Shown one piece after another: positions 621 to 41,397 of a stretch of DNA of 44,520 nucleotides (the stretch's first letter is position 1; each line of letters begins with the position of its first letter). Source of the stretch: Phycisphaerales bacterium (GTDB taxonomy: Bacteria > Planctomycetota > Phycisphaerae > Phycisphaerales > SM1A02); contig JBBAOD010000003.1 in assembly GCA_040401635.1 (NCBI GenBank), forward strand, positions 1 to 44,520, read 5' to 3'. Under the pieces are notes generated by a model. The model did not search any database and was not told the DNA's origin. It saw nothing but the letters and a program-made list of their open reading frames with translations. The position numbers and the translations under genes were made by a program.

Positions 621-1255
621 ATCGCCGCCGAAATGCACGTGGATTCACGCTGTTGGAAGCGCTGATTGCTGTGGGCATGCTGATGTTGCTGCTCGGTGCG
701 CTGGCGATGTTTGTTGAGGATCTCACCCGTACTCGGCAATTCTCGGCGCGCACGGCAGCGCAGACTCGGTCAGCGGATGCCCTGTACAGCGTGCTTGAGG
801 CAGCATTGCAAACAGCAGTTGTTGATGGCGGTCCGCTGGGTTCGGGAGTCACTGGAACAGATCGGTCAGTGCGGGTTCTTTCGTCGCGGACCGATGCGGG
901 CAGCGGCAGCGTGCGCGAACTGGCGCGGGCCGCGTTTGCTGCGCTATCTGCAACAGAGATCGGTGAGTCGTCTGGAAACATCACCATCACTCGCGGCGGA
1001 TCTTCCAGCGTGCTTCCTGCCACGGTGCGCGCCATGCGCGTGCGCTACTGGACACAGGGTGGATGGGCGGATTCGTTCGACTCACTCTCCGCGGGTTCGC
1101 TGCCGCATGCAGTTGAAGTGGCGCTGTGGTTTGGAGTGGCGGCCGCTCAATCGGAGGAAGAGAACTTTGGAACGCCGGATCGGGTTCGAACGATCGCGGT
1201 TCCTGATGCAGCGGGCGCTGATGGCGCGAACTTCATACCGGAGGCTGGGCAGTGA
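617..1255 (+). CDS. Prepilin-type N-terminal cleavage/methylation domain protein, GspJ-like pseudopilin
   Basis: MNRRRNARG/FTLLEALIAVGMLMLLLGALAMF is a classic G-FTLLE prepilin peptidase motif with Glu+5. ATGA overlap at 617-620 and GTGA overlap at 1252-1255. Confidence 0.8.
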   Translation: MNRRRNARGFTLLEALIAVGMLMLLLGALAMFVEDLTRTRQFSARTAAQTRSADALYSVLEAALQTAVVDGGPLGSGVTGTDRSVRVLSSRTDAGSGSVRELARAAFAALSATEIGESSGNITITRGGSSSVLPATVRAMRVRYWTQGGWADSFDSLSAGSLPHAVEVALWFGVAAAQSEEENFGTPDRVRTIAVPDAAGADGANFIPEAGQ

Positions 1256-3351: not shown

Positions 3352-3357
3352 ATACTA

Positions 3358-14900: not shown

Positions 14901-15715
14901 ATCCAAGCGTCATGGTGGCGAACAACACACGTGGTCGGATTCAGGTTGGTGAAACCATTCGAGTTCCTGATGCAGTCACCGTCAGCGCCGCCGGACAGCA
15001 AAGCGCAGTCAGTGCAGAAGAAGTGGGTGTGATTCTGGAAGTCACGCCATCAATTAACCCCGATGGATTTGTGAAGATGGCAGTGGAGCCAGAAATCAGT
15101 CGACTCAGTAAGCAGACAGTGGACATTTCGGAAAACTTCCGTAGTCCAATCATTGAGCGACGGCGTGCCAACACCACCGTCACGGTCCGTGACGGAGAAA
15201 CCGTAGTGATCGGCGGTCTCATCAATGATCGCTACGAACGCTCCGACCGCAAGATTCCAATTCTGGGCGACATTCCCATCATTGGCTTGGCGTTCCGGCA
15301 AAAGACCGAGACCACCGCCAAGACAGAACTGCTGATCGTCTTGCGGCCGCACGTGGTGCGCACGCCGCAGCGCATGCAGCAGATCACCGAGGAGTCGGTC
15401 GGTCGCATGTCCTTGCAGCCTGGTCTCAAGGAACAGATTCGTAAGGCTGAACTCAAGGGCACACAGGGCCGGTACAACGACAAGGGTGAGTGGGTTGACC
15501 CGATCGGCGCGCCTTCCGAGGCTCCAGCCGCCGACGGCGACGCACCAATGCCAAGAAAGGGCGACTCAACGCTGATCATGCCCGTCACGTCAGAGCCTGG
15601 CGATCAAGTGACCACCAAGCAAGCAAACGGCAGCATCACCATTGGCCCTAAGTTGCCAGCGCCAAGCGCAGAACCTTCGCCACCGACCGCCCCGCTTACA
15701 CCAAAGGCACCATGA
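5945..15715 (+). CDS. Giant secretin (GspD/PilQ family), 3256 aa, with about 30 tandem secretin N-domain modules
   Basis: The C-terminal secretin core (about 14610-15360) reads VLIQVMLAEVTLVDNEDIGIEF, LINALASQNRVQMLSNPSVMVANNTRGRIQVGE, TVTVRDGETVVIGGLINDRYERSDRKIPILGDIPIIGLAFRQK..TELLIVLRPHVV. Signal peptide MNTKISNASRMIPEVLAVFAVSVTALTTPVIAA (alternative ATG at 5963). N0-like start IRFAFKGQSWDQILDYFSR. After that comes a ~90-aa module recurring about 30 times. No in-frame stop. Confidence 0.9.
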   Translation: MSRTRHMNTKISNASRMIPEVLAVFAVSVTALTTPVIAAHTSNVANTAADPAASIMQDPPAPTSGGIRFAFKGQSWDQILDYFSRTTSLPIVRETEVPKGSVDYISARAYTLPEALSTLNQLLQTQNVMLRVEKDKLYLQKLADMKRENIPTFVNELPATVTDDTIVTLMLPLKTARVGPISTQLANLVGTYGSVTALEAQNSLILVETAGQVRRMLKMIESIDHAEPDNEVRFYPLRHAKANTLIASLSSLIGQRQIEYVIGADGKKTKIEESKMEGLSMTADERTNAIVARGVRSRLLQLADVIELLDVPSEGSAGAGIPGAPAAVTRSVRTVMLRGVTPSEAKLRLDELYATLPKELKPTVLAMDEVGKLAIVGPSQSVAEGAALIEALDGDRRVPGSARVDDIDPQTVTLIPLRNADATSIIPQIRDLQTAAQRKVVTIAAGPDGRSVIVSALSSESDQVRRIVEILDQAGRIERRTQVLKVQAVKPADAIAAAKRILASERDPRSPEGELDIGIASDGRTLTVAGTQAAIARFEQALKLAEQATVVERSTRVFELKYAQATKVAPALQQMAKQILTPKDGTQYSEPQIEGIDTLHQLSVTGTEEQLKSIATLVATLDRADRTGRMVAVRQAKASELATSVRDLVARTQVDDPSHPFTAPTIEPIEQTNSLWIVGEPAQLAAVEEVVRQLDTVTPGQLPPLRLLQVRAADASQMAQLLTARYDQRPADLRREKPVRVDADTATNTLIVTAHEEVFPEIREFIESVNRSGEKDGQRETVIIPLRVGRAVEVAAALDKLYPQPPMPLDARGRPLPHLQKQKDIFISADAATNTVIVECPGERKAQFEAIVAQLDRIEAPPQAGVRTWRIDRGDLDKIAASIRGLAQSGALAAPSVAGRKSPEVTVQVESASRTLIVTGDEAAFSKVDAVVKELQGVPAAGFKTYVLKSGRTDQVSSLLKQVLTTRARRDIPGGESQVEVTSDRRTGTLIVSAPDSLIAVADQLVAQLDAAPAVAGADTQQVRVHALTFADANQLAPALQQASAAMPSPATQDPMKVSIVPATGSNALILTGIAPDLDAIEKLIDPLDKNGTADTAQVKTVMLKHARAETLAPLVEKLLSDRAMMSLRDMPQSLRQEYLRRGIDRAPVRVAADTRLNAVIISGPPAVLETADQMVAQLDAESVPQGGAQEVRVVTLRNAEASEIAQTITQMFANDPSGAAAPLVTVNASSNSLIVRATEAQHTQIEGVIEQVDAAAGVSGREMRTVAIDPSRGDASELARMLERSLNREGGGGAEVVTMEELMKRAQQAKPASPSAPAPSPSAKPVTPAVVPAAAPSPATTNPSTPAPRAAPLPQPNARSQATPRAPHFAAALLATALAQSSGGMNQAATINQDDDTRVTITVDPKTNSLVIVGSKRAVERAQRLAQQAQQSIAPAGSVVRVVQLPAGADTAALREVVLQTVAVMTPAGGRIGDIARRSSVVADPQGGTLVISAPERDIDQILDATAKIVAGAKGTEPTNKPVLRTFTLSQARAVKLANTLQQLFGSRRGANPLAAPQFSADERTNTLMVTASPAALLEVEELVAKLDTGSPAADVQVKTFVLVHAQADELVWTLRQLLSARTDSQGIRLDADRASNRLIVAGSADQIASATQLLAELDRPSDVVRTTEFLTLKHAEAQKVREALGYFYGPDAVDAETPGRRAVRIVTDPATNSLVVSAPKEEWDGLRSMINKLDSEDYDSNLQLRVFSLRNAQATSVATAINTAFKGDQQERQQVAPAGPDGRPTRQAPAYLVKGESWVSAVADPVTNSVIVSANRKNLGKIEVIVQQLDAERVAGLPAPRLIPVLEGHSPTQIAAALRTVFAPAEGQPRGLNSPRIVPDETAGTIIIRAEDKDYEDMAALAATLQGMRPEASGSLFMVELKHLSADAAAQTVNGLGLTSAGATDPKGRVVRGPVKVFAVPGRNSLAIAALPEDRALIADLVAGIDTEPTWAQSEGELVRLSKAAAPAVAASLQKMIDAAATPGANSLAKALQEQVRRLRIRRSGVLTADLMLDLTKPLKLVADEKTNSIMVTGAKENVEAARELIAMLDDVPMTGSVTMRILPMRNIDAQEFATVVRELFTQGKALGKIPGTTLTGAPQGDVGTALADDFALTVVERTNTVIVAGRDEAVALVEAMQQRLDTTDASAASAVRSYPLNRAGATAVSQRLEQFFNAQAQQKNFRPEDKVRMVADDRTNTLVVSTSQRSFSVLEELLKQLDREIPADLRELKLVQLTHASATRLAPLIQQLMDSRLERVRAAEPRAADLQKVTILADEQANTLLVSGGADAFDVIKGIVAQLDTLERTDVAPLHVLPMKRGNLDRVATAVNQIMDRRYADMPQTVAKRARPLVMTDPRSNCLLIAATEPDFKDIESLVARIEEQPTDPAVALHVIPVQGVRVETIAPRLQTVMRERMATLGDTARPSDRISIESDLATTTLIVASSQENAEIIKQLIDSLKSVGNDSALTRDFQTIQLKKSRATDIVQLLDNMYIREENRRRGNDSVRAIVDSRTNAVILSGAASDITTMSKIVGELEATKPLEVVEIKYIRLKSANVLELISLIDSVLSGNSLASRGTQQATIVRYLKQMPGVDTESAEMEINAAVRQSISLTPDIRSNTVIVRAPKDSMDLVEKMIEDLDHDDSSAQNVRVIRMAHAEAESVLEILNELFRLKKQGNLYVLKPRDGGTPPSADGATPGTAPENAGRSTTIAGLELNMVPDERQELSITVDPRTNSLLVSGTPNYLSAVEKVVKELDTDQFGNRDQHIVHLKNATAIEVAETLTKFADGERNKLLEVYGNNRQAASSRLLDAQVTVVGDQKSNSVLLTGSPRYVEKLKGVIKELDVDPPQVLIQVMLAEVTLVDNEDIGIEFSRIDYGDGYYSAGGFGLNKTGFGTLQPKAPGLVGLAPALFSGIGIPNIAVGGPDFDLLINALASQNRVQMLSNPSVMVANNTRGRIQVGETIRVPDAVTVSAAGQQSAVSAEEVGVILEVTPSINPDGFVKMAVEPEISRLSKQTVDISENFRSPIIERRRANTTVTVRDGETVVIGGLINDRYERSDRKIPILGDIPIIGLAFRQKTETTAKTELLIVLRPHVVRTPQRMQQITEESVGRMSLQPGLKEQIRKAELKGTQGRYNDKGEWVDPIGAPSEAPAADGDAPMPRKGDSTLIMPVTSEPGDQVTTKQANGSITIGPKLPAPSAEPSPPTAPLTPKAP

Positions 15716-27561: not shown

Positions 27562-28677
27562 TTATGGAGTGATAGTGACGCGGCGGTAGAAGCCGTTGTT
27601 TTCTTGTGCAATCGCTTGCAGTGATTGCACATCGTTTTCGCTCGCGAACGCAATGGTGTTAATTTTTGTCAATAAACCCTTGTTTCCGGCGGCAATTTCA
27701 TCGCGGAGCATGCCGATGTCACTGCTGTCAAATTCACCGTCGGTCAACAGAAAGATCGCTTCTGGGTTCATTTGGAGTGCCATGCGCATGGAGTCCCATG
27801 TGCCACTTCCGCCCGCTGGGTCTGATTCATGTTGGGTGACCCAGCGAATCGCTGAATCACGATTCGCTGCAGTGGCAGCTAACCACTCGCCATTGGGCGG
27901 CATCGGTAGCGCATTGGTGTAGACCGTTCCCGACTTGTTTGGGCTTTCAACAAGTTTGGCCCCATTCGCGGGCGATACCCCGAACAGAATCACCGTGAAT
28001 TTGCAACCATCGCGGAGCGATTGAATGCTCTTGGCAAGTTCGGATTTGAGTAGTTTCTCGCGGCCATCTTCATTGCGCATGCTTGACGAGAAGTCCAAGA
28101 TGTAGACGATGCTCTTGGCATCAGTCGGAATCCCCATGAACTGTGTTCCGCCGCCCCCGCCTGCACCCGCACGACCTGCGCCGTCCTTGCCATCCTTGCG
28201 ACCAACAGCAGTCGCGGTCTGCGGAGGATCGATTGGATCATTGATATTCGGCAAAGTGAAGCCGAATTTCGGTAGTTCCTTGCTGTCACCACTCACCAAC
28301 GACTCGCCTTCGACGGCATTTGCAGTGGCGAGTGTGCCGGTGCGTTGACCGCGCGGTGCAGAGTCGGCGGTATCACCAACGGCACCATGGAGATTCCCGG
28401 AGGTACCGGCGCCTGGGCCGTCACCGGCAAGCGCACTGCCGCTGCCGACGCCCGCGCCGAAGCCGCTCCCTGAGCCTGTTCCGTAGCCGCCGCCAGCTGT
28501 TCCCGCAGCATCATCTCCGGGCGGATCGACCGGCGCTGCAAACAGAATTGCCGCGATCACCACACCAAGCGCCAGCACAAAGCAGCTAGCGATGGCAGCG
28601 ATCGCAGAGTTACGCTCGCGGCGGTCGCACGATGCGCCGGGGTGTGTTTGCCAGGGAAGCCAAGAGAGGAGTGACAT
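27562..28677 (-). CDS. Membrane-anchored periplasmic von Willebrand factor A (vWA) domain protein
   Basis: Short cytoplasmic N-terminus (CDRRERNS), TM AIAAIASCFVLALGVVIAAILFAA, Gly-rich linker, PKFGFTLP motif. The vWA domain has a MIDAS motif (VYILDFSSSM ... GTWDS ... IFLLTDGEFD). Confidence 0.85.
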   Translation of the reverse strand: MSLLSWLPWQTHPGASCDRRERNSAIAAIASCFVLALGVVIAAILFAAPVDPPGDDAAGTAGGGYGTGSGSGFGAGVGSGSALAGDGPGAGTSGNLHGAVGDTADSAPRGQRTGTLATANAVEGESLVSGDSKELPKFGFTLPNINDPIDPPQTATAVGRKDGKDGAGRAGAGGGGGTQFMGIPTDAKSIVYILDFSSSMRNEDGREKLLKSELAKSIQSLRDGCKFTVILFGVSPANGAKLVESPNKSGTVYTNALPMPPNGEWLAATAANRDSAIRWVTQHESDPAGGSGTWDSMRMALQMNPEAIFLLTDGEFDSSDIGMLRDEIAAGNKGLLTKINTIAFASENDVQSLQAIAQENNGFYRRVTITP

Positions 28678-28725: not shown

Positions 28726-29859
28726 TTACTTGATTTCAGTACGCATCGGCGGGGAACGATCGACCCGGATGATGAAGACTCGGGTGTTGGAAACGCGCAT
28801 CAGACCTCGCATGATCTTCATGAGTTCAGGTTGCTTTTCCTCTGCATCGGTAACGATGAATTCGATGTTCGGGCGCTTCTCGGTTCCGTGCTGCCGCTTC
28901 TTCATGTTGGCAATGACGAGTTGGTAGCCCGTTTCTGGAGAGTCTCCACCGCCATATGGCTCGACATCTAATACCTGCTGCACCATCCGCTGAATGTCTG
29001 TTGACTTCTTGGTCTTTAAGGTTGGTTTGATGATCACCTCGTTTGGCTCCCCCAAGAGGACATCACGAAAGGAAGTGACGGTGATCGAGCCGCCCTGCAA
29101 ACTATTGAAAATCTCAGCAATCACGCGGGCTACCGCGTCACGGGCGGGTGCCATGCTGCCAGTCGCGTCAAGATTGATACTGATTCGCGAGTCGGGCCAT
29201 GCTTGAACTACGTCGATGATCTGACCCTCGGTGGATCCTCCGCCGGCTGCTCCCGAACCGCCGCGCGTTGGGCGCCCGGTTGGCACACCGGGTGCTGCCA
29301 CACTGGGCGGTTTCGGCATGATCATCGGTGGTGGAGGTGGGGCATCAGGCTGCGTGAAGCCAAATTTCGGTGGTTCGATTTCTGGTCCGGCCGGCGCGAG
29401 TGCTACGGACTCTCCTTCTTCGGAATCACCTTCGGCCGCAGCCCCATCGGGGCTTCCGAGTGGCGGGGCTATTTCATCCGGACCGGCAGCGAGTTTTCCG
29501 CGCGTGCGGTCGTCTACCCCGGCTCCTGGGCCAGATCCATCAACACCGCTCCCAGTTCCACTGCCATTCCCGATACCTGCCCCGTCGCTGCGCCCGAGTC
29601 CGCCTCCTGATCCGCCACCACCGTATCCGCCACGGCTTCCAGCGAAGATCGCCGCTAGCACGACGCACAAACCCAACACAAAGGCGGCCACGATTCCAAG
29701 AATCGCGGACGCTCGCTCGCGTGGTTCGCACAGGGCTTCGTCCTCACCCGGTGTGTCGGAGTTCTCAGAATGAATCGCCACGGAATCAGCGTACGCCATG
29801 AACCCCCGAAGCCCAATGCCCCGTATTTCTCCTGCGGGTACCTTTTGACTTTGGACCAT
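28726..29859 (-). CDS. Membrane-anchored periplasmic vWA-like protein, paralogue of the downstream gene
   Basis: Same layout as the neighbour: CEPRERAS, TM AILGIVAAFVLGLCVVLAAIFAG, Gly-rich linker, PKFGFTQP motif. The vWA-like domain reads ISINLDATGSM ... YGGGDSPE ... EFIVTDAEE. An alternative start at 29799 (MAYAD) is possible. Confidence 0.75.
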   Translation of the reverse strand: MVQSQKVPAGEIRGIGLRGFMAYADSVAIHSENSDTPGEDEALCEPRERASAILGIVAAFVLGLCVVLAAIFAGSRGGYGGGGSGGGLGRSDGAGIGNGSGTGSGVDGSGPGAGVDDRTRGKLAAGPDEIAPPLGSPDGAAAEGDSEEGESVALAPAGPEIEPPKFGFTQPDAPPPPPMIMPKPPSVAAPGVPTGRPTRGGSGAAGGGSTEGQIIDVVQAWPDSRISINLDATGSMAPARDAVARVIAEIFNSLQGGSITVTSFRDVLLGEPNEVIIKPTLKTKKSTDIQRMVQQVLDVEPYGGGDSPETGYQLVIANMKKRQHGTEKRPNIEFIVTDAEEKQPELMKIMRGLMRVSNTRVFIIRVDRSPPMRTEIK

Positions 29860-29924: not shown

Positions 29925-31259
29925 TTGAAGGACACCACCGTGAGTAGGAAACTCAAATCCAGCGCCGTTTGCCCCCACTGCTGGCACCGATTCCGTCCGG
30001 ATCAAACGCTCTGGGTCGCTGCGCATCCTGAGTTGCTCGGCGATCGATTGCTCACGCCTGAAGATCCGGTGCGTTTCCTGCCGTCGCGCTTCACGCCAGC
30101 GGGCGAGGCGATCGACCCGTCTGGTTCCAAGACGCGCCGACTTGCATGCCCCAACTGTCACTTGGAGATTCCGCAACTGGTACTTGAGTGCCCGATGGTG
30201 ATCATGAGTTTGGCTGGCAGTCCATCAAGCGGTAAGAGCTATTTCTTGGCGAGCGCTATGTGGAAATTGCGCGAGGAACTCGCACGGCATTTCTCCGTAG
30301 CGTTTACGGACACGGATCCCGCGATGAACCGTGCAATCACCAACAACGAAGGTCAGCTCTTTCTCAACGAAGATCAGTCCGCGTCGGTTGCCATTGACAA
30401 GACGGAAATGGAAGGAGCGCAATACAACTCGGTGCAGTTTGATCCGGGTGTCGCCACCATGCTGGCGCATCCGTTCATCTTCACCGTGCGCCCTTCGCGC
30501 GATCATGTGAACGGACATGCACCGCATCGATTGACACAGCTATTTACGCTCTATGACAATGCTGGCGAGCACTTCTTTCCTGGCGCCGATACCGCGCGCG
30601 CGCCTGGAACGCAGCATCTAGCGAAGGCGCAGGTTCTGATGTTTGTCTTTGATCCGACGCAGGATGTTCGCTTTCGCCAGCGTCTTGCTGGTCTCAGCGG
30701 CGACCCACAATTGGCTCCGGGTGCAAAGACCACGCGCCAAGATCAATTGATTGTGGAAATGGCGCGCCGTGTGCGCATCCACGCAGGTCTTGCACCGCAG
30801 GATCGGGTTCCCAAGCCGCTGTTTGTCATTCTCTCCAAGAGCGACATTTGGGCCCCACTTCTGAAGGAAGAAGATGGAACACCAATGGACATCACCACGC
30901 CGCCCTACGCGCGCGAACGCGCCGGTCTGGGGCGAATGAGCATCAAGCGCGTCGATCGAACCAGTGATCGCATTCGTGCGTTGCTGTGTGAAGTAGCACC
31001 GGAACTCGTGTCCGCTGCCGAAGACGCGTTCGAGCGCGTCATCTTCATTCCAGTGAGCGCGATCGGAACGTCGCCGGTCCTGGATCCAGCGAGCGGTCTC
31101 CTCAAGGTTCCGGTAGCGCGCATCGCTCCGCGGTGGGTGACCGTTCCGTTCATCTACACACTTGCGCGTTGGTCGACGCACTTGGTCTCAAGCGACAAGA
31201 GCGAAGGCGACCCATCATTCGGAACACCGTCGGATTCCGCTGACATGGATCCATCGTGA
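29925..31259 (+). CDS. Zn-ribbon-fused TRAFAC-class P-loop GTPase
   Basis: Four-Cys ribbon CPHC...(58 aa)...CPNC. G1 is LAGSPSSGKS, G3 is LYDNAGE, G4 is ILSKSD and G5 is PVSAIG. TTG start at 29925, or GTG at 29940. Confidence 0.85.
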   Translation: MKDTTVSRKLKSSAVCPHCWHRFRPDQTLWVAAHPELLGDRLLTPEDPVRFLPSRFTPAGEAIDPSGSKTRRLACPNCHLEIPQLVLECPMVIMSLAGSPSSGKSYFLASAMWKLREELARHFSVAFTDTDPAMNRAITNNEGQLFLNEDQSASVAIDKTEMEGAQYNSVQFDPGVATMLAHPFIFTVRPSRDHVNGHAPHRLTQLFTLYDNAGEHFFPGADTARAPGTQHLAKAQVLMFVFDPTQDVRFRQRLAGLSGDPQLAPGAKTTRQDQLIVEMARRVRIHAGLAPQDRVPKPLFVILSKSDIWAPLLKEEDGTPMDITTPPYARERAGLGRMSIKRVDRTSDRIRALLCEVAPELVSAAEDAFERVIFIPVSAIGTSPVLDPASGLLKVPVARIAPRWVTVPFIYTLARWSTHLVSSDKSEGDPSFGTPSDSADMDPS

Positions 31260-31313: not shown

Positions 31314-33779
31314 ATGGCACTCGAACTCATCTACACATCTGCAGTACGCGGCCTCCGGGCTGGAACCAGCGGGTTCTGCACTGTGGCGATGACCAAGGGA
31401 TTGCCGCCGGCGTTGGTGCCGCGCCTGGAAGCGCTCGGCGGATATCGCACTGGTCCGTCGGGCAATGGCCCGAATGCGTATTGCTTCTGGCGTGTTGAGA
31501 CAGCGACGGGGATTGCGCATGTGCTTTCCATTGTTGGTCCTGCACCGCCGGACCACACGGCGCGTTCCAACAAGATCGCTACGTACTTGGTGCTCGCGCC
31601 GGATGAGTTGGTGCCCGCTGGACCCGCGTGGCTTCTTTCGCAACCCGCGCTTCTGCGTAGCACATGGAGCGGTGCGCCTGCTTGGATCGATGCTCCAGTG
31701 CGCGTGCCGACAACTCGTGATACCGGCCCGCGTCCATGCGCTGCATGGCAGGCAGCGAGTGGCGATGCGGGCTGGGCGGGCGTTCTGGCAAGTGCATTCC
31801 TTCGCGATCAAGCGCGGCCGATTCATGTGATTTACGGCGCCGCCATTGAGCCGCTGCCACTTGTTGAAGAAGCAATTCGACTCTTGCCGGAGTGGGCGCG
31901 TTGGCGCGCAACGTTCTCAACGTATTTCCTCCAACCAGTTGCTGGAACCCCGTGCGCGTGGCGATTCTGTCTTGATGGAACTCCAGCTACGGATGCTGCG
32001 CGGCAGTCCAAGGGGCTGGTCATTGACCTGACGCGCACCGCGGGGCCAGCGCCCGAATCACGATTCACACGTATGGCTCGGACGGGTATTGATGAGGAGG
32101 CGGTAGCGGCGCAAAGAGCGACGCGAGCAGCCGCGCGTGCCGCGGGAGCGGCTGCTGTTACCGGTGCCAGCGCTGCGCGGTCGAGCGATGCGCCCATTGA
32201 ATTGGAAATGGACTTTGCAGGAGATCAAGCCGGTACGCCGCGGCGCTTGGTGCGGGAGTTGGAATCTGAAGATCAAGGTGCGCCATCTGGCGAGCCAGCG
32301 CGCATGTCCATCAGTCCACCCATGTTGGCACTCGCCGCGGCTGGATTGACAGTGATACTTCTGGGTTTAATTTACCTGGTTAGTTTTACGACGGGCCAAA
32401 CTGCGGCACCAGCGGCACCAGCGATCCCCGCGATACCCGCGGCACCTGCGGTTGTCGAGAAGCCCAAGCGGGAGATGGAGCCGCTGAATTTGAAAGTGGA
32501 TGCTGCCGATGTCGGTACCACTCGGTCCGACGATGTCACAGCGGAGCCCGTCTCGAATGATGATGGAGCTCCGCAGGAGGAAGTCATAGAAGAAGCCCCG
32601 GGCATGCCAACGGATCCAGAAGCGTCGGCTTCGCCGCCTGAGCGCGTGCTCCCCGCTGTATTGCCTCCGCCCGTCGTGGCCCCAGTCGCGCCTGTCCCCA
32701 CGACACCAGTCATCACGCCGCTGGTATTGCCAACGATTGCGAAGTGGTCACCCACTTCCGCGTTCGAACGCGTCGCAACAGGCGCTGTGCAATTGCGGTT
32801 ACGTTTCGACGTTGGTGCAAAAAGTGGGTGGACTGTGAACTTTGTGCCTGCAAAGTCGCTCGCCGTGGCGGGTGTCAGTGTGCAGTCAAATGGTGGAATT
32901 GAATTCAGTGGGTCAGCCATGAGTGCGCGGGCTTCCATTAATGGAGCCGACCTCGTCATCGCTGGGTCCGCCGCTGGTCCTGTTCCTGAGGCGCTTCAGT
33001 TAGCGCTCCGTGATGCGAAGGATGTAAAGGACGCCAAGCTCGATCCGGTAGTCGTGCTGCAGCGGGCGCTTGAGCGTTGCACCGTTGAGGTGTTTGACAA
33101 GGGTGGCACATCGCTTGGGTTCGCACAGGTGCGGACAAAGTCAACGAAGTCGATCGGTATCGGAATGGAAAACAGCACAGCATTGGCAGATTTCGGCAAT
33201 AGCCGGCTCGATAGGCAAGTGACATCCCCTGCCGTTCCAGAGGCAATAACAGTTCGAGTTGATCCGATGCAAATTGAGAGCATGAACATCGCGGAAAGTT
33301 TGACTCTTTCTGTCAACCGTGCTGTGCAAAAGTCAGCAACGGTGTTCAGTGCAATGGCGCCGAGCGCTTCGGTTGTTGGGTTGCACATCACGGCATTGTC
33401 GAAGCAACAAGCCGAACTGAGCGCTCTCAAGAAGTCGTGCAATGTCGTGCTCGCGGTAGCGAAAGGCGGTACTCAGTCAGGTGGCTTTGAAGCAGACCTG
33501 CAGGCCGTACAGAACGCACTACTTCCGGAAGAGCAGAAGAAATTCCTCGTCGCTGGTGGTAAATCATCGCTGATATCAGACAGCAAGACCATGCGTGACA
33601 TGGTCGAATCAATCACTCCGCGTCTCGATAGTGAATTGAATAGCGTCAGTAAAAAACTGACGGAGGCCAACGCGGCGAGTAAGGCCAAGGCGAGCCCCGC
33701 GCAGTGGCGCATTCGCGTATCAAACGAGGACGGGATTGTGCTACTCGACTCCGCCATCACACCACGGGTGAGCAAATGA
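31314..33779 (+). CDS. Bitopic protein with a cytoplasmic GAP1-like (GTPase-associated) N-domain, one TM and a large periplasmic C-domain
   Basis: N-terminus MALELIYTSAVRGLRAGTSGFCTVAMTKGLP. TM MLALAAAGLTVILLGLIYLVSF near aa 335. Pro/Ala linker, then ~400 aa with no recognisable domain. Confidence 0.75.
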   Translation: MALELIYTSAVRGLRAGTSGFCTVAMTKGLPPALVPRLEALGGYRTGPSGNGPNAYCFWRVETATGIAHVLSIVGPAPPDHTARSNKIATYLVLAPDELVPAGPAWLLSQPALLRSTWSGAPAWIDAPVRVPTTRDTGPRPCAAWQAASGDAGWAGVLASAFLRDQARPIHVIYGAAIEPLPLVEEAIRLLPEWARWRATFSTYFLQPVAGTPCAWRFCLDGTPATDAARQSKGLVIDLTRTAGPAPESRFTRMARTGIDEEAVAAQRATRAAARAAGAAAVTGASAARSSDAPIELEMDFAGDQAGTPRRLVRELESEDQGAPSGEPARMSISPPMLALAAAGLTVILLGLIYLVSFTTGQTAAPAAPAIPAIPAAPAVVEKPKREMEPLNLKVDAADVGTTRSDDVTAEPVSNDDGAPQEEVIEEAPGMPTDPEASASPPERVLPAVLPPPVVAPVAPVPTTPVITPLVLPTIAKWSPTSAFERVATGAVQLRLRFDVGAKSGWTVNFVPAKSLAVAGVSVQSNGGIEFSGSAMSARASINGADLVIAGSAAGPVPEALQLALRDAKDVKDAKLDPVVVLQRALERCTVEVFDKGGTSLGFAQVRTKSTKSIGIGMENSTALADFGNSRLDRQVTSPAVPEAITVRVDPMQIESMNIAESLTLSVNRAVQKSATVFSAMAPSASVVGLHITALSKQQAELSALKKSCNVVLAVAKGGTQSGGFEADLQAVQNALLPEEQKKFLVAGGKSSLISDSKTMRDMVESITPRLDSELNSVSKKLTEANAASKAKASPAQWRIRVSNEDGIVLLDSAITPRVSK

Positions 33780-36673
33780 ACGCAGCCAAGCAAGAAATGT
33801 TCGAAACGGTTCGCTCGGTTGTCGCTGGAAGGCTTCGGGACGAAGCGCAAATCCGCGAGCTCGCGCATCGAATCTCGGAAGAATCAACCACGTTGCGCCG
33901 CCGCCTGGATCGTGCGGTTGGTTACGCCCGCGCCGGTCTTCGATTGGAAGCATGCGCGGAGGCGGAAGCGGAGCCCTCGGTGTTTGAACTCGCCGCAGCG
34001 TTTGACTCCGATGTCATGCGGCAGTGGCGGACGCTTTGCTCCAAGAACAAGTTGCCGCTGCAAGATGAAATTGCCAGTGACGCCATCGCAGAGATTGAAG
34101 AGGCAATCGCGCTTACTGCGCCGCTTCGCAGCAGACTTGCCCGGATGCGGCGGCTGGTACTTTCTGATGCATCTGCATGGAATAAGCTTGAAATACTGCG
34201 CGAATTGGTGTCACGCGACAGCGACAATCCGGCATGGCAAGAAGATCGCGCCGCTCTTGAGCCAGTGACCGCGAATGAGCTTGGCGATCGATTTGAGGCC
34301 GCCTTGGAGAAGGGCGCTCTTGACGACGCAGAGCTTTCCGTCACGCGGCTTGAAGATGGGAACTGGCATTGGTCGGGCGCAGCAAAGGTAGCCGCGCAGT
34401 TACGTGCACGGCTTAATCGCGCACTTGCCACACGAACAGCACTCGAAGCGCGGGCTGTCATCGCACTGCTCGATGAAGAGTGGGCTGCGGAGAATGAGTC
34501 GGGGGCACAGGCGGCGCTGGAATCATGGCGCGACCTTGAGCAGCGCATGCTCTCGTACGGCAGCGAAATGCCGGGAGATCTGCTTACGCGCGTGGATGAA
34601 GCCGAGGCGTGGCTCTCTGCTCGCCAGTCAGATGCAGCGGCGCACCGCGAAAATATTGACCGGGTTGCGGCGCTGGAACGGCTCGTACATGATGACGCTG
34701 TGACACTTCCCGGATTGCGTAAGACGCTTCGATCTGCGGAGCAGACCGTGGCGGGAGTCCCGGATGATCTGCGCGCGAGCGCTGAGCGCAAGATTGATTC
34801 CTTCGAACGTGCAGCACGAATGAAACGCTTGGCCTTGATTGCGGCGGTGGTGTTGGTTCTAATTGCTGGATCAGTGGGCACCGTCTATGTCTTGCGCCAG
34901 TCGGAGGAACTGAAGCGGATCGATGACATCGCCGCTGCGATTACCAGCAATGTTGACGCCGGCCGGCTTGTGGAGGCAGATCAACAGCTTGCGGAGGCAG
35001 AGAAAGAGCCCGCCGTTGCTGGGTCGCCGACGATTGCCGCAGCACGATCAAAGCTCACAGTAGCTCGTGCCGCCATCGCAGAGAAGCATCAGAAGTTCAC
35101 AAGCCTGATGGCGGAGGCTGGCGCCCCAGATTCTGAATCCGCCAAGCCTGATCGCATTGAGGAAGCAAAGCAATTTGCTCAGGGTGAGGAAGAGCAAGCG
35201 ATGGTTGCTAGCTGGATTCGTACACACGGCAATGCAACGGGCACCCGCCGCACCGATCGCATGCGCGAGGGAATGGCCCGCGCCAAAGCCACAACACGAG
35301 AGATCACAGCGGCTCAGCCAACCGGTGACGCATCCTGGGATGGAACATTCACTGCGTGGGAAAGTGCACTTGCTGATGTTCAGCGCCAGTATGGCGAGTT
35401 TGACGAAGTGACTCAAGAAGTCCGTGCGGGTCGTGCGAGTTTGATGGCGCAGCGCACAAAGACAGACACTGCGCGAGTAGAAACTGGCCGTGTCGGCAAA
35501 CTCGGTGGCCTTGGAGGTGCCGCAACTTCGCCACAGAAACTTGTGGACGCGTTGGCGGCATACATCAACGCACACGATGATTCGGCAGAAGCCAAAGACT
35601 TTAAGGCAGCCAAGGTCGCGCTTCCGACGTGGGAGGCAGTGACTGCGTGGTCCGCGGTTCAGCCGCGCCCCTCCGTATTACTTGCAGATCGACCGCAGGC
35701 AGAACGCGATGCGGTCGCCGCAGCAATTGATACGTATGTTCACGAATATCCATCCAGTCCGTACGGGGCCGAGTGCGAAGCGCTCGCGCCACTACTTGTT
35801 GCGGCGCCCGGATGGCGTGCAGCCCTCACGGAAAAACTAGAAAGTATGGAGGAGTTGACCTACTGGATGATCGAACGCAAAGACGGCTCGCGCTGGTACT
35901 GCAAAGCTGACCCACGATCATCTCCATTGCAAACGCAGGACGGTGTGGCCTTTAAGAGCGTCATGGTCTATCAGGGCAAGTCCAAGAAGACGGCGTTCGA
36001 GCGATTTGAGCAATTGCAGTTGAAGACAGAGGGGCCATCGCCACAAACGGTGTTTGGCAAGCAGTTGGCTGAGCTTATTGCAGACGATGAAAAATCAGTA
36101 AACGACATCGATGGAGCGTTCGACGCAATGACGGCGTTGCGCGAGAATGAAACGATCGATGGAGCCTTAGCCGCGCAATTGATGCAGGGATTGCTCGAGT
36201 CAATGGCGCCGCAAATGCCCGCAGTGATCCGTCCGCAGATAGAGGCGGCAGTCAAGCGCATTGCCAAAGAGAAGCCAGATGCCATTGATTGGATCAATCC
36301 GCGCGACGCAGACGCCCGCACTCGAAGCCGAGCTGCCCGTGCGGCAATGCGTGAGGCTGTACAACCAGAACTGTGGCGTAAGGCGTACGTGTCAGCAATG
36401 GCATCGGCATGCGCTCCGCTTGCAGTGGTGTACGAGCCTGCCGGTGTCTTTGTGAAATCTGCTGGTAAAGACGTATTTCTCTCAAATAAAAGCACGGTGG
36501 CTCCGGCGAATACGACACTGTGGATCGCCGAGCCGCCGATCGGCAGCAACCTTGGCATGATGATCAAACTGGGAACAGTGAAGCAGGGCGGGGTGGTTGA
36601 GTTTGATTCAGCATCTACGACAGTGACGCCGGGCAACATGGTCTTCACCATCAAACGCGGGGGCAAACCGTGA
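33776..36673 (+). CDS. Bitopic protein with a long cytoplasmic alpha-helical/coiled-coil region, one TM and a ~570-aa periplasmic domain
   Basis: Start at MNAAKQ (ATGA overlap with the upstream stop at 33776-33779). TM LALIAAVVLVLIAGSVGTVYVL. GTGA overlap with the downstream gene. No family recognised. Confidence 0.75.
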   Translation: MNAAKQEMFETVRSVVAGRLRDEAQIRELAHRISEESTTLRRRLDRAVGYARAGLRLEACAEAEAEPSVFELAAAFDSDVMRQWRTLCSKNKLPLQDEIASDAIAEIEEAIALTAPLRSRLARMRRLVLSDASAWNKLEILRELVSRDSDNPAWQEDRAALEPVTANELGDRFEAALEKGALDDAELSVTRLEDGNWHWSGAAKVAAQLRARLNRALATRTALEARAVIALLDEEWAAENESGAQAALESWRDLEQRMLSYGSEMPGDLLTRVDEAEAWLSARQSDAAAHRENIDRVAALERLVHDDAVTLPGLRKTLRSAEQTVAGVPDDLRASAERKIDSFERAARMKRLALIAAVVLVLIAGSVGTVYVLRQSEELKRIDDIAAAITSNVDAGRLVEADQQLAEAEKEPAVAGSPTIAAARSKLTVARAAIAEKHQKFTSLMAEAGAPDSESAKPDRIEEAKQFAQGEEEQAMVASWIRTHGNATGTRRTDRMREGMARAKATTREITAAQPTGDASWDGTFTAWESALADVQRQYGEFDEVTQEVRAGRASLMAQRTKTDTARVETGRVGKLGGLGGAATSPQKLVDALAAYINAHDDSAEAKDFKAAKVALPTWEAVTAWSAVQPRPSVLLADRPQAERDAVAAAIDTYVHEYPSSPYGAECEALAPLLVAAPGWRAALTEKLESMEELTYWMIERKDGSRWYCKADPRSSPLQTQDGVAFKSVMVYQGKSKKTAFERFEQLQLKTEGPSPQTVFGKQLAELIADDEKSVNDIDGAFDAMTALRENETIDGALAAQLMQGLLESMAPQMPAVIRPQIEAAVKRIAKEKPDAIDWINPRDADARTRSRAARAAMREAVQPELWRKAYVSAMASACAPLAVVYEPAGVFVKSAGKDVFLSNKSTVAPANTTLWIAEPPIGSNLGMMIKLGTVKQGGVVEFDSASTTVTPGNMVFTIKRGGKP

Positions 36674-37845: not shown

Positions 37846-38715
37846 ATGGCACAGCCAACTCAACCCGCCACAACCGTTACCACGCAACCGAAGCTCGATG
37901 CACGCGCCGGCGACATTGAATGCATGATCGGATTCTCGTCCGGCCGCTACACGGTGGCATCCGCACCGCTGTGGCTTGGTGTGGCAGCAGTCATGACCAT
38001 TCTGGTCGCACTCATCTTGGTGATTGTTGCACCCAACAGTTACTTGTTACTCATGATGAATCGTTGTTGGACCAATTGGGCGGTGGTGTTCTTTTCGTGG
38101 TGGTGCCTCGGCATTCTCTTCGCAAAGTGGATCAAGACCAGTATTCAACTGCGTGCGCTCCGCGCCGTGGACATTGTGCCGCGCCGCGGCGATTTCATCC
38201 TGAGTCCTGGTACTTCCGGCGACGTCTTGCGCCGCATCAAGGCGGTCGCGGAGCGCCCCAAGGATTTCCTGCTCTTTCGTCGAATCGATATGGCGCTGTC
38301 CAACCTTGGCAATATTGGAGAAGTGCGTGATGTTGGCGCGGTTCTTGAAAGTCAAGCGGATTCCGACGGGTCAAGCGTGGACTCGAGTTACACAGTCATT
38401 CGCTCGCTCATCTGGACCATTCCGATCCTTGGCTTCATTGGCACCGTCGTTGGTCTATCGCAGGCGATCGGTTCATTCACCGACGTTCTGACGCAGACTG
38501 GTAGTGATGCAGGCAGCATCAAGAGCAAACTCGGACCAGTCGTTGGTGGATTGGCTACTGCCTTTGAGACAACGCTTGTTGCACTCGTCGCCGCCGTCAT
38601 CATCCAGCTTCTTTCCACTTGGGTGTACAAGCGCGAAGAGGCGTTGCTCGACGGCATTACTGACTTCACCACTGAAAATGTGCTTTCGCGCCTGAAACTC
38701 ACCGATTGGCAGTGA
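37846..38715 (+). CDS. MotA/TolQ/ExbB-family proton channel subunit
   Basis: Two N-terminal plus two C-terminal TMs. Signature IWTIPILGFIGTVVGLSQAI and LGPVVGGLATAFETTLVALVAAVIIQLL. GGAG SD 8 nt upstream. Confidence 0.9.
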   Translation: MAQPTQPATTVTTQPKLDARAGDIECMIGFSSGRYTVASAPLWLGVAAVMTILVALILVIVAPNSYLLLMMNRCWTNWAVVFFSWWCLGILFAKWIKTSIQLRALRAVDIVPRRGDFILSPGTSGDVLRRIKAVAERPKDFLLFRRIDMALSNLGNIGEVRDVGAVLESQADSDGSSVDSSYTVIRSLIWTIPILGFIGTVVGLSQAIGSFTDVLTQTGSDAGSIKSKLGPVVGGLATAFETTLVALVAAVIIQLLSTWVYKREEALLDGITDFTTENVLSRLKLTDWQ

Positions 38716-38718
38716 CCC

Positions 38719-39600
38719 ATGGGACGACGCAAGAAGCGCGAAGAGGCTCCGCTGAGCCTGTTTTCCTTCCAAGACATCATGGCTTGCCTCACCGGCATCC
38801 TGATTCTGGTGGCGCTGCTCATTGCTATGGATGGACTGACGGACGAGATGGAGGCAACGCCCGGCAAGAGTGGCGCGCCGAATCCAGAGGTCGCAGCAGC
38901 GCGCGTGCCGGTACTGCGCGAACAGATTGCAATCTTGCAGCGCTCGATCGACGACCGTAAAGGCGGCCGCGATGTAACGAAGGCCGAAGTGGATCTTCTT
39001 GATTACAGCATCAAAGACAAGGCGATGTTGGTAGAGCGAGCGCGTAAGCGCCTGGCGGATGCTGATGCAGAAATGAAGCGCATCACTGAGGAGCAAGCGG
39101 CGGCAACTCAGCAGATTGAAGAACTTCGGGAGCGTATTGCTACTGCGAAGCGCTCTGCAGAGGCGCAAGTGTTGCGTGAGCGCGTGAAGTTCCGTCCAGG
39201 AATGAAGTACACAAAGGCGCCGGTATTCGTCGAACCAATGGCGACCGGAGTAGTGCTTGGCGAACTGGATGCAACTCGCACGCCAGTGCGTATTGCAGAC
39301 CTCAAAGATCCGAACGCCGATGCGCGCATTGTTGGCGCGCTCGCTAAGCGACTTCCTGATACCTCGTACATCGTGTTCGTCGTGCATGAGGATGCCATTC
39401 CGCGCTTTGAAACACTTCGTAATGCCTTGATTCGCCGTGGCTATGAGGTGGGCTGGCAATTGTGGGACGGCGCCACTGGCGGATTCCTGGATGGCGCCTC
39501 CGAATCCACGGGCCCGGTGCCGTTGACGCTGCCAGCGGTCGCCGACAAGCCGAGCGAGGCTGTGAAGTCAGGCAAGTCTCCCGCCGGAGGTGCACCATGA
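38719..39600 (+). CDS. Elongated ExbD/TolR-like stator partner with coiled-coil insert (293 aa)
   Basis: N-terminus MGRRKKREEAPLSLFSFQDIMACLTGILILVALLIAM: basic tail plus a TM with the conserved Asp. ~100-aa coiled coil. ExbD-like C-domain TSYIVFVVHEDAIPRFETLRNALIRRGYEVGWQL. Starts 3 nt after the MotA-like stop. Confidence 0.75.
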   Translation: MGRRKKREEAPLSLFSFQDIMACLTGILILVALLIAMDGLTDEMEATPGKSGAPNPEVAAARVPVLREQIAILQRSIDDRKGGRDVTKAEVDLLDYSIKDKAMLVERARKRLADADAEMKRITEEQAAATQQIEELRERIATAKRSAEAQVLRERVKFRPGMKYTKAPVFVEPMATGVVLGELDATRTPVRIADLKDPNADARIVGALAKRLPDTSYIVFVVHEDAIPRFETLRNALIRRGYEVGWQLWDGATGGFLDGASESTGPVPLTLPAVADKPSEAVKSGKSPAGGAP

Positions 39601-40415
39601 GTGCAGGCGGTCGACGTCGTCGGCGGGGCGGCCGCAAGAGTTCATCCCTTGCGGGTGATCCCTTGGATTTGTTCTTGGATGCCATTACCAATGCGCTTGG
39701 CGTCGTTATGTTCATTCTGCTGATGGTGGTGCTCTTTGGCCGGGCGAGTGATTCACAGTCAGATGCCTCGGCTCCAAGTGCAGCAGAGGTTCGCGAAGCG
39801 CGTGACCTTGAAGACCAACGCCAGCAACTGCAAGCCAAACTCGACGCACTGCCGCCCGCAGGCGACCCCGAGTTGAACGCCCGCTGGAATGCAGCCAACA
39901 AAGCGTTTCAGAAGTTAGAAGATGAATTAGTCGAACTTCTGAGCGAAGCCCAGCGCCGCGAAGCGGACGCGTCTGCCGCCGCCGCCAAACTTGCAGAGTC
40001 GCGCAAGGTGCTTGAGCCACTCACCGCGGAGGCATCGAAGAAATCAGAAAGCGCCACTCCGCCGAGTGGTTTCGTCCGTGTCAGCCGCTTCCAGCAGGAT
40101 CAGCGAAAATCGGTCATCCTGCTTCTCTCGGCAGGCAAGCTTTCGCGATTCCGCGCCACTGCAGAAACCAAGGAAATCAGTGCTCCCGCGAGCGGATTTG
40201 CGGTGACCGATGCGGTCAGTGCCGCCGAGGGCGTTAGCCGGGCGCTCGATGGGTTCCAGCCCGCCACTTACCGCGTCGAATTGCTGGTTTGGGAGGGTTC
40301 GTTCGCGCCGGGCAAGATGGTTGAGCAGGCACTCCTTGACTTGGGGTTCGATTCGAATCCCCTCCCTGTTCGTGCGGGCACGTCTGTTCAGTCCGGAACC
40401 GGCGGCGTGCAGTAG
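39597..40415 (+). CDS. Second elongated ExbD/TolR-like protein with coiled coil (272 aa)
   Basis: Start at MSAGGRRRRRGGRK (ATGA overlap at 39597-39600). DPLDLFLDAITNALGVVMFILLMVVLFG is a TM with Asp. Coiled coil, then C-domain YRVELLVWEGSFAPGKMVEQALLDLGFD. Confidence 0.7.
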   Translation: MSAGGRRRRRGGRKSSSLAGDPLDLFLDAITNALGVVMFILLMVVLFGRASDSQSDASAPSAAEVREARDLEDQRQQLQAKLDALPPAGDPELNARWNAANKAFQKLEDELVELLSEAQRREADASAAAAKLAESRKVLEPLTAEASKKSESATPPSGFVRVSRFQQDQRKSVILLLSAGKLSRFRATAETKEISAPASGFAVTDAVSAAEGVSRALDGFQPATYRVELLVWEGSFAPGKMVEQALLDLGFDSNPLPVRAGTSVQSGTGGVQ

Positions 40416-40425
40416 CGTCTGCAGC

Positions 40426-41397
40426 ATGCGCCTGTGCTCCCTTCTGTACCTTCCCTTGCTCGTCATCATGGTTGGCTGCGGCAAGCCCATTGTGGTGCAC
40501 GCCGTCACGGAGTCATCGCTCGATCCCATTGCAGACGTGCGCGTCTACCGACATCGCTTCGGGTTCTTCAATTTCTTTCCGGGCACAAAGTTTGTTCAGA
40601 CTGGACCAGACGGCCGCGCAGAAGTCAGTGTTGGTTCTGCCAATACCAATCTCACCATGCTGCGCGCCGGATTTGAGCCAGTCATCTTTGGCGTCTTTGA
40701 AACGCCATCAGTTGCTATCGCGCCGGATGTTGGCGGCTATGACCATGTGGTGATGTTCAAGGACATCAAGTCTGCCCCGAAGAACGAATACCAAGTGAAA
40801 CTGCGCCCGGTGCGTCGGGAGCCGATGCAACTCACCGTGCTCGACTCCGCAACGAACGCGCCGATCAGTGGCGCGGAAGTCTTTGGCGCAACATTCCTGT
40901 ATCTGCCACAGCCGGGCCTGGAGGCCGACTGGGGATTCCCACCACTGCAAGTTGCAAAGACTGACGCTTCCGGCAAAGTCACCATCGACCAGATTTCCGG
41001 CTTTCGCAACAGCATCACTATTCGACTTGTTGGGTACCAGAACGCCGTCATTGCCTTTGATGGACGAACAATCACTGGCCCGCGCGCCGTTGATGTTCCG
41101 TTTCGCAAATTGCAGTCCAAACAGATTGACTTCCTGGTGATTGATGCCAAGACCAAGGCGCCGGTGCAGGGCGCGGAAGTACGGCTGGGCGAATCACGCG
41201 ATGGATTGCCGCCGAACCCGAATGGTTGGACGAAAGTCGTCGGGGCGGATGGGCGCACCGGGCCGATGCCGGTGGCAGACATGTCACCGTTTCTCATCAG
41301 CGTGACCAGTAGCAACTACCAAGAGTGGCGAGGGGCGCCAGTATGGCGGGCGCTGACTGCGGGGCAGACCAAGAAGCTGGAGTTGCAGCGGAAGTAA
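40426..41397 (+). CDS. Lipoprotein with about 3 carboxypeptidase-regulatory-like (Ig/beta-sandwich) repeats
   Basis: Lipobox MRLCSLLYLPLLVIMVG/CGK. Repeated IVVHAVTESSLDPIADVRVY, LTVLDSATNAPISGAEVFG and FLVIDAKTKAPVQGAEVRLGE. Starts 10 nt after the upstream stop. Confidence 0.7.
   Translation: MRLCSLLYLPLLVIMVGCGKPIVVHAVTESSLDPIADVRVYRHRFGFFNFFPGTKFVQTGPDGRAEVSVGSANTNLTMLRAGFEPVIFGVFETPSVAIAPDVGGYDHVVMFKDIKSAPKNEYQVKLRPVRREPMQLTVLDSATNAPISGAEVFGATFLYLPQPGLEADWGFPPLQVAKTDASGKVTIDQISGFRNSITIRLVGYQNAVIAFDGRTITGPRAVDVPFRKLQSKQIDFLVIDAKTKAPVQGAEVRLGESRDGLPPNPNGWTKVVGADGRTGPMPVADMSPFLISVTSSNYQEWRGAPVWRALTAGQTKKLELQRK

Follow-up and report, generated by a model that had tools for sequence, protein, structure and literature searches.

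The 44,520-nucleotide stretch of Phycisphaerales DNA analysed here (assembly GCA_040401635.1, contig JBBAOD010000003.1, positions 1 to 44,520; hereafter the window) encodes a GTPase-associated protein 1 (GAP1) of 821 amino acids (aa) with a single transmembrane (TM) helix, designated GAP1-TM. We see an even chance that this protein is the membrane-spanning GAP1 of a GAP1-N2-type DO-GTPase system and acts as a transducer of the TolA/TonB/GltG/GltJ type. The domain layout of the protein and the conserved operon around its gene, which includes genes for a GTPase and for a putative proton-driven stator, point in this direction. The gene and its parts, with confidence given as pLDDT (the predicted value of the local distance difference test) and pTM (predicted template modelling score), are:

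31314-33779, + strand: single-pass GAP1-N2-type GTPase-associated protein, 821 aa (ATG at 31314, stop codon at 33777-33779)
31314-31670, + strand: GAP1-N2 domain, aa 1-119, predicted cytoplasmic (PF20013, E 1.3e-16)
31737-32036, + strand: GAP1-M domain, aa 142-241, predicted cytoplasmic (PF20014, E 2.3e-14; pLDDT >90; many invariant columns)
32316-32393, + strand: single TM helix, aa 335-360 (Kyte-Doolittle peak 2.55; helix in the AlphaFold2 model)
32394-32726, + strand: disordered Pro/Ala-rich spacer, aa 361-471, predicted periplasmic (21% Pro; pLDDT <50)
32727-33776, + strand: lineage-restricted ectodomain, aa 472-821 (AlphaFold2 pLDDT 84.9, pTM 0.67)

Both cytoplasmic domains were matched far above the Pfam cut-offs, which bears out the resemblance to GAP1-N domains noticed in the initial annotation. 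The match to the PF20013 (GAP1-N2) profile hidden Markov model (HMM) scored 61.3 bits (cut-off 24) and covered profile positions 1-127 of 139. The match to PF20014 (GAP1-M) was full-length (profile positions 1-101 of 101) and scored 53.9 bits (cut-off 24). In an alignment of 72 GAP1 homologs, the N-terminal motif MALEL[IV]YTSA..GL..G.SGFCTVAM is almost invariant. The full-length AlphaFold2 model, based on the same 72-sequence alignment, is confident for aa 1-285, with pLDDT values in GAP1-N2 mostly between 70 and 95. The strands (b) and helices (a) of GAP1-N2 follow the order b-b-a-b-b-b-a, which we take to be that of longin-type GTPase platforms; this likeness is not significant. Two helices (aa 250-286) are all that stands between GAP1-M and the disordered region leading to the TM helix. 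No further GAP1 family was matched at E ≤1 in the Pfam scan, the library of which was not confirmed to hold a GAP1-C model. Scans of the 821-aa protein against NCBIfam and PADLOC matched nothing.

The homolog search yielded 240 proteins with a length of about 800 aa, found in metagenome bins of Phycisphaerales/Planctomycetota. Across the family, the mean pairwise identity of aa 1-260 (GAP1-N2/M) is about 68%. The JGI homologs P0006, P0007, P0010 and P0027, among others, were called from an internal Met (MTKGLPP...), which drops 25 residues. Since such starts remove the PF20013 annotation, GAP1-N2 is under-annotated in public gene calls. MALEL[IV]YTSA looks like the conserved N-terminus and the MTKGLPP starts look mis-called.

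The GAP1-N2/M part (31314-32180, aa 1-290) also gave weak Foldseek matches to the type VI secretion system (T6SS) repressor TagF/PA0076 (2qnu, 6iz8). With probabilities of 0.63-0.82 and E values of 0.14-0.23 over about 110 columns, these are not significant. They belong to the cytoplasmic part, because they were seen in the full-length search and not in the ectodomain-only search. A Pfam match to the T6SS adaptor family Tla3_C at aa 125-184 was sub-threshold (E 0.0076) and is not significant either. GAP1-N2/M may resemble T6SS accessory proteins, which is kept as a lead only.

The TM helix and the Pro/Ala spacer predicted in the initial annotation were both recovered. The protein contains one strong hydrophobic segment (aa 334-360), which coincides with the modelled helix, and one such segment lies at a similar position in 120 of the 120 homologs listed (of 240). 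The model shows two disordered stretches, aa 286-334 and the spacer itself. Across the family the spacer has a mean length of 107 aa and contains 20% Pro; at about 110 aa it is long enough for crossing the periplasm. GAP1-TM has no N-terminal signal sequence. Lys and Arg residues are more common on the N side of the TM helix in 48 of the 72 homologs and on the C side in nine. These two observations and a signal-peptide-bearing ectodomain paralog encoded next door in related loci support a predicted N-in/C-out single-pass topology, and hence argue against a protein that is cytoplasmic throughout. PDB matches of the family profile to VirB10 (E 0.008) and TonB (E 0.49) were rejected as signs of homology, being compositional, confined to the Pro-rich spacer and not significant.

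The C-terminal 350 aa or so had been described as extracytoplasmic and without a nameable domain, and no sequence or fold relative of this region was found. It has no match in Pfam, NCBIfam or PADLOC. A separate AlphaFold2 model of aa 472-821 shows a confident fold consisting of a beta-rich region, a long helical hairpin and a terminal beta-hairpin. With Foldseek, this model had no counterpart at E <1e-3 in either PDB or BFVD, and the beta-rich region is weakly like two tandem Ig/FN3-type sandwiches (Foldseek probability ≤0.47, TM-score ≤0.2). The ectodomain profile found only 37 matches among 1.84 billion representative proteins. As nearly all of these are the same ~800-aa family or its fragments, the ectodomain is taken to be truly lineage-restricted. 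Matches of about 320-330 aa (P0124-P0126) were considered as standalone ectodomain proteins and rejected, since they are N-terminally truncated fragments. Within the family, the mean pairwise identity of the ectodomain is about 24%, with length and architecture kept.

Most of the related loci (at least 20) contain an extra gene for a protein of about 320-340 aa with a signal peptide, located between the GAP1 gene and the gene of the 965-aa protein listed below (for example L010:5076-6098 and L005:~12532-13542). Its product is a secreted ectodomain paralog of the type found in P0095, P0099 and P0115, with homology over its length to the ectodomain of some family members (phmmer E 6e-29, 3e-22 and 2e-11). 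Alignment of the ectodomain profile A2 with this gene product by hhalign was negative despite the clear phmmer homology to a subset of members, because the profile is too heterogeneous. The gene is cleanly missing from the window and from loci L006-L008.

The ectodomain is also a specific rate outlier within the operon. Ratios of non-synonymous to synonymous substitutions (dN/dS), calculated by the Nei-Gojobori method against seven close relatives, were about 0.05 for GAP1-N/M, 0.41-0.69 for the Pro-rich spacer and 0.30-0.56 for the ectodomain. The ectodomain value is the highest among the folded segments of the operon and is surpassed by the disordered linker only. All other operon segments, including the other periplasmic domains, range from 0.01 to 0.19, with the GTPase at 0.01-0.04. 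Compared to locus L030, the identity is 89% for the GTPase, 84% for both GAP1-N/M and the MotA-like protein, 63% for the periplasmic part of the 965-aa protein, 65-75% for the TolR-like C-terminal domains and 34% for the GAP1 ectodomain.

Starts and stops of the + strand genes overlap or nearly abut, so that these genes are predicted to form a translationally coupled operon. Two vWA genes lie divergently upstream of it. The genes that accompany the GAP1-TM gene are:

27562-28677, - strand: membrane-anchored vWA protein, 371 aa, predicted periplasmic (Pfam VWA_3, E 6.8e-9; TM helix aa 22-54)
28726-29859, - strand: second membrane-anchored vWA protein, 377 aa, predicted periplasmic (Pfam VWA_4, E 4.4e-9; TM helix aa 48-79)
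29925-31259, + strand: DO-GTPase2-type GTPase, 444 aa (Pfam DO-GTPase2, E 1.6e-5, 25.1 bits, cut-off 27)
33776-36673, + strand: 965-aa protein with a helical, predicted cytoplasmic part of about 345 aa, one TM helix and a predicted periplasmic part of about 590 aa
36670-37815, + strand: GYF-domain/multi-TM protein, 381 aa (weak GYF_2 match, E 0.007; at least six hydrophobic segments)
37846-38715, + strand: MotA/ExbB/TolQ-family proton-channel subunit, 289 aa (PF01618, E 2.1e-9, 37.6 bits, cut-off 22.9)
38719-39600, + strand: TolR/ExbD/MotB-like subunit 1, 293 aa (starts 3 nt after the MotA-like gene)
39594-40415, + strand: TolR/ExbD/MotB-like subunit 2, 273 aa (start at M45 of the listed open reading frame (ORF), chosen from orthologs)
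40426-41397, + strand: putative lipoprotein, 323 aa (signal peptide ending in ...MVGC; CarboxypepD_reg-like beta-sandwich)

The GTPase gene is located directly upstream of the GAP1-TM gene. Its product scores just below the Pfam cut-off, whereas orthologs in the same position score 29.8 and 27.8 bits, above it. The translation shows an N-terminal zinc ribbon (CPHC...CPNC) and intact GSPSSGKS, DNAGE (Walker B with Glu) and SKSD motifs. The divergent position of the gene for the 371-aa vWA protein, upstream of the GTPase gene, is kept in related loci. The spacer that follows the TM helix is Gly-rich in the 371-aa vWA protein and Gly/Pro-rich in the 377-aa one. In both proteins a low-complexity Gly-rich tether of about 130 aa (GGGSGGG-type) was observed between the N-terminal TM helix and the vWA domain.

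For the 965-aa coiled-coil TM protein, the start was set at M25 of the listed ORF on the basis of ortholog N-termini; it overlaps the GAP1 stop codon. The protein has no Pfam match, and its gene is kept directly or one gene downstream of GAP1 in related loci. The gene of the GYF/multi-TM protein follows two positions downstream of GAP1, which fits the partner described in PMC7159879, and positional orthologs of its product contain two GYF_2 domains (E 1.6e-20 and 2.4e-25). In the MotA-like protein the PF01618 match spans aa 161-261. TolR-like subunit 1 has a basic N-terminus, a TM helix with an invariant Asp (FQD), a coiled coil of about 100 aa and a C-terminal alpha/beta domain. Subunit 2 is its paralog, aligns end to end and contains an FLD motif in its TM helix. 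F17, D19 and G26 are invariant in both paralog families from Phycisphaerales to Victivallales (alignment A3), and hhalign sets the invariant Asp on the TM Asp of TolR. In the near-identical loci L036 (18679-20406) and L039 (18797-20596), both TolR-like paralogs were found in one frame of 576-600 aa, which is either a real, topologically awkward fusion or an artefact of assembly or frame.

The lipoprotein shows a sub-threshold Pfam match to CarboxypepD_reg (E 3.3e-6), and its lipobox, read from the translation, is kept in orthologs. At least six single-pass inner-membrane proteins are encoded at the locus, namely the two vWA proteins, GAP1-TM, the 965-aa protein and the two TolR-like proteins. 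No fn3 match was found by Pfam in any operon product. A promoter and terminator scan detected fewer sites than in shuffled sequences and was uninformative.

The order of the genes (vWA/DO-GTPase2, GAP1-TM, ~970-aa TM protein, GYF-TM, MotA/ExbB, two TolR-like proteins, lipoprotein) is conserved. It was the same in four individually examined distant homologs (23-69% identity over the best-aligned segment) and across 54 loci from species-representative genomes, a sample in which some loci are near-duplicates and several labels of metagenome-assembled genomes (MAGs) are plainly unreliable. The layout recurs in Phycisphaerales, in a Roseimaritima (Pirellulales) MAG (L052) and in Victivallales/Lentisphaeria MAGs (L053, L056 and L057). 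Family HMMs detected a MotA-like gene in 25 of the 30 loci whose sequence extends 9.5 kb or more downstream from the GAP1 start; the Roseimaritima MAG and the three Victivallales/Lentisphaeria MAGs are among the loci with this gene. The near-identical planctomycete loci L010, L023, L041 and L042 carry the labels Chitinophaga, Nitrospinota or Saccharibacteria and evidently stem from mis-binned or mislabelled contigs.

In the window the cluster is flanked by DapB/ThuA and Asd/IGPS, and in Phycisphaerales it keeps a XylA2-like TIM barrel protein, a Na+/H+ exchanger and ThuA as housekeeping neighbours. Its G + C content and the G + C content at third codon positions (GC3) are indistinguishable from those of the flanks. 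Pfam scans of the window found no mobile-element genes near the cluster. Elsewhere in the window (5945-15715, + strand), a 3256-aa secretin is encoded, with 25 Secretin_N stretches (PF03958, E 5.5e-271) ahead of the C-terminal Secretin domain, an N-domain array that is unusually long for a secretin. Upstream of the secretin gene (617-5948) lie a gene for an N-methyl pseudopilin and three ORFs without a Pfam match.

DO-GTPases and GAP1 were defined by comparative genomics (Kaur, Burroughs, Iyer and Aravind 2020, eLife 9:e52696; PMC7159879). According to that study, GAP1 proteins of the GAP1-N2 type are often fused to C-terminal TM segments, and membrane-proximal action together with contact to an extracellular ligand or the cell wall was predicted for their systems. 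The view of the initial annotation that described GAP1 proteins are cytoplasmic is contradicted by these fusions, and the novelty it claimed for the TM form was wrong for the same reason. A planctomycete subtype with a GYF-pair/TM-rich partner was also described there (PMC7159879) and matches the window locus. The text of PMC7159879 makes no mention of MotA, ExbB, TolQ, TonB, protons, two TolR-like proteins or a lipoprotein, and neighbourhood information was not found in the text of its supplement. Among the papers searched, the few others that contain the DO-GTPase/GAP1 terms use them only in passing. New here are the ectodomain family and the conserved stator module, which is absent from the text of the defining paper.

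In the proposed mechanism, the GAP1-N2/M platform would read the nucleotide state of the cytoplasmic DO-GTPase and couple it across the inner membrane to binding by the ectodomain in the periplasm or at the outer membrane. The coupling would take place inside a complex with a stator of the 5:2 type driven by the proton motive force, in which the MotA/ExbB-like channel would be plugged by a heterodimer of the TolR-like proteins and which would power or gate the complex. The 965-aa coiled-coil TM protein, the GYF/multi-TM protein, the tethered periplasmic vWA proteins and the lipoprotein would belong to the same complex. Information could flow as force from inside to outside or as sensing from outside to inside, and the system could serve as an envelope machine or in conflict. 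The initial annotation had already suggested an element that signals or transmits force across the membrane, an idea that gains from the conserved MotA/ExbB and TolR-like genes in the operon and from the TolA/TonB/GltG/GltJ layout. The weak side of this idea is the TM helix, which shows little conservation and has no motif of the TonB/TolA type, and it is for this reason that we infer the transducer role and go no further.

Several observations weigh against the transducer proposal. The pairwise identity of the GAP1 TM helix is about 26%, its small-residue patch A339/A342/A343/G344 is only partly conserved, and no conserved Ser or His of the SHLS type, as in TonB and TolA, occurs in the TM columns of the 72 homologs. 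This argues against sequence-specific docking of the helix into the highly conserved MotA-like channel. Neither Pfam nor the Foldseek PDB matches gave the ectodomain any similarity to TonB_C or TolA_C. The TolR/ExbD identity of the paralog pair, suggested by position, topology and the invariant Asp, is weak at the profile level. Alignment of the TolR-like protein to Escherichia coli TolR and to ExbD by hhalign gave P 0.0025 (probability 12%) and P 9e-4 (probability 23%), respectively, and 24 TolR-like members showed no Pfam ExbD match (PF02472) at E ≤10. The TolR-like profile found only coiled-coil noise in the PDB, and nothing significant once the coiled coil was removed. In a few Planctomycetia loci (L047 and L054) the operon ends after GYF-TM and no MotA-like gene is adjacent; since the core of GTPase, GAP1, ~970-aa protein and GYF-TM occurs there, the motor is not obligatory for GAP1 function. 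The dN/dS values of the ectodomain stay below 1, which is compatible with a mix of constrained and diversifying sites and also with relaxed constraint instead of diversifying selection. DO-GTPase/GAP1 systems are moreover known from a single comparative-genomics study (PMC7159879).

Which process such a protein would serve can be read in two ways, both of which we consider possible and neither of which we consider probable. GAP1-TM could be the outside-in sensor of an anti-phage or anti-invader conflict system, a reading we consider less likely than not. The ectodomain would detect an invader or envelope damage, the signal would pass a threshold switch of GAP1-N2/M and the DO-GTPase, and membrane effectors (the GYF/multi-TM protein or the MotA-like channel) would arrest or kill the cell, with the stator unit in a Zorya-like envelope-sensing or effector role. 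This corresponds to what Kaur et al. 2020 put forward for GAP1-N2 systems (PMC7159879). The ectodomain being the fastest-evolving folded part of the operon is as expected of an arms-race surface, but its dN/dS remains below 1. The secreted ectodomain paralog is variably present, yet no component is shuffled apart from this one optional gene. The MotA-like protein has weak PADLOC matches to ZorA (E ~1e-3), and the only PDB chain touched by the TolR-like N-terminal profile is 8qyd_F (E 0.8), which we take to be ZorB of Zorya; however, no component of the cluster has a significant PADLOC match. The cluster occupies a fixed chromosomal place beside the same housekeeping genes (XylA2-like, Na+/H+ exchanger and ThuA), even at 23-28% GAP1 identity, and shares the composition of its flanks. 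Unlike typical defence islands, it lacks any domain recognisable as a toxic effector and has no mobile-element genes close by. The fixed position and the constant set of components thus fit poorly with the conflict model. The more novel alternative, which we put forward tentatively, is that the cluster is a vertically inherited, previously unrecognised trans-envelope machine of the Planctomycetes-Verrucomicrobia-Chlamydiae (PVC) superphylum, driven by the proton motive force and not immune in function, in which the DO-GTPase/GAP1 switch would govern assembly or polarity.

An improbable reading is that GAP1-TM is a passive scaffold, in which the TM helix and the ectodomain only anchor the GTPase and GAP1 to the membrane or cell wall and the ectodomain evolves fast because it is weakly constrained. 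The poorly conserved, motif-less helix, the low-complexity linkers, the occurrence of the core without the motor in some loci and a dN/dS of 0.3-0.56, which fits relaxed constraint, would all be in line with a tether. Selection for structure is nevertheless indicated by a confidently foldable 350-aa domain whose length and architecture are retained across the family although pairwise identity is about 24%, and specific periplasmic interactions by its duplication as a secreted paralog kept in the operon. The translational coupling of GAP1-TM to six other envelope proteins also speaks against mere anchoring. Many long spurious antisense ORFs overlap 31314-33779, as is usual at 60% G + C, and in a genome of such high GC the ORF or its C-terminal half might in principle have been annotated by mistake, or the gene might be decaying. 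This is effectively refuted by the 240 homologs of similar length, the confident fold, the lack of internal stops in seven close orthologs and dN/dS values well below 1 in every segment.

The locus offers a concrete, testable architecture, in which a membrane-crossing GTPase adaptor is linked to a stator of the Tol/Ton/Mot type across three PVC lineages. Provided that the components assemble into a single complex, this would be a further GTPase-controlled, proton-driven envelope machine besides Agl-Glt of Myxococcus. The envelope and division biology of Planctomycetes is poorly understood, and a machine of this kind, if real, might matter for surface motility, for constriction of the envelope or for division in these FtsZ-less bacteria. 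The locus also bears on the question whether the "GAP1-N2 conflict systems" of Planctomycetes are immune systems or cell-biological machines. The ectodomain founds a new family of periplasmic domains, one that evolves unusually fast.

With the GAP1-N2 systems of Kaur et al. 2020, the window locus shares the combination of GAP1-N2 and GAP1-M, a zinc ribbon-bearing DO-GTPase2 directly upstream and a C-terminal TM segment, and with their planctomycete subtype a GYF/TM-rich protein in the operon, vWA proteins nearby and the Planctomycetota lineage. It differs in that GAP1-C was not detected with a library whose GAP1-C model was not confirmed, that the ectodomain is a family-specific beta-rich/helical-hairpin domain and not a cadherin, that Pfam recognises no separate FNIII-repeat protein and that the locus behaves like a core cluster with vertical inheritance. 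Zorya ZorA/ZorB is similar in combining a MotA-family channel with a coiled-coil partner carrying an Asp in its TM helix, outside flagellar rotation. However, the PADLOC matches to ZorA extend over only about 80 aa, the 289-aa MotA-like protein lacks the long cytoplasmic tail of ZorA, and ZorC, ZorD, ZorE or any other Zorya component was not found at the window locus in the PADLOC scan. TonB and TolA likewise have a single N-terminal-proximal TM helix, a Pro-rich or extended periplasmic spacer and a C-terminal globular domain, and are linked to genes for a channel of the ExbB/TolQ/MotA type and a subunit of the ExbD/TolR type (here the Asp-in-TM proteins). In contrast, GAP1-TM has a cytoplasmic GAP1-N2/M part of 260 aa before the TM helix, no SHLS-type TM motif and no TonB_C or TolA_C domain.

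By analogy, the Agl-Glt system of Myxococcus xanthus is the closest functional precedent. In GltJ, a cytosolic zinc ribbon-linker-GYF region that binds MglA-GTP is followed by one TM helix, then by a periplasmic stretch that is disordered and finally by a TonB-C domain (PMC11135422). GltG has been likened to TolA, and two different TolR-like paralogs pair up as a heterodimer to plug the AglR5 channel of the AglR5-AglQ-AglS motor (PMC11761067). The Myxococcus gliding machinery also includes a vWA adhesin that works at the outer membrane (PMC9946355). The likeness is architectural and not one of sequence homology: the GTPase is a DO-GTPase here and the Ras-like MglA there, the GYF and zinc ribbon domains are located on other polypeptides here, the C-terminal domain of GAP1-TM is not TonB-C, and the host organisms are not known gliders. 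As in GltJ and GltG, a cytosolic N-terminal region that is predicted to engage a GTPase is followed in GAP1-TM by one TM helix, a disordered periplasmic stretch of more than 100 aa and a folded C-terminal domain. Both systems encode a TolQ/MotA-like channel together with two different TolR-like subunits, and GYF and zinc ribbon domains, a long coiled-coil protein, a vWA protein and one or more lipoproteins are common to both. If the cluster is an envelope machine, it could be a functional analogue of the MglA-controlled Agl-Glt system or of Tol-Pal, with the transmembrane GAP1 as its GltJ/TolA-like transducer.

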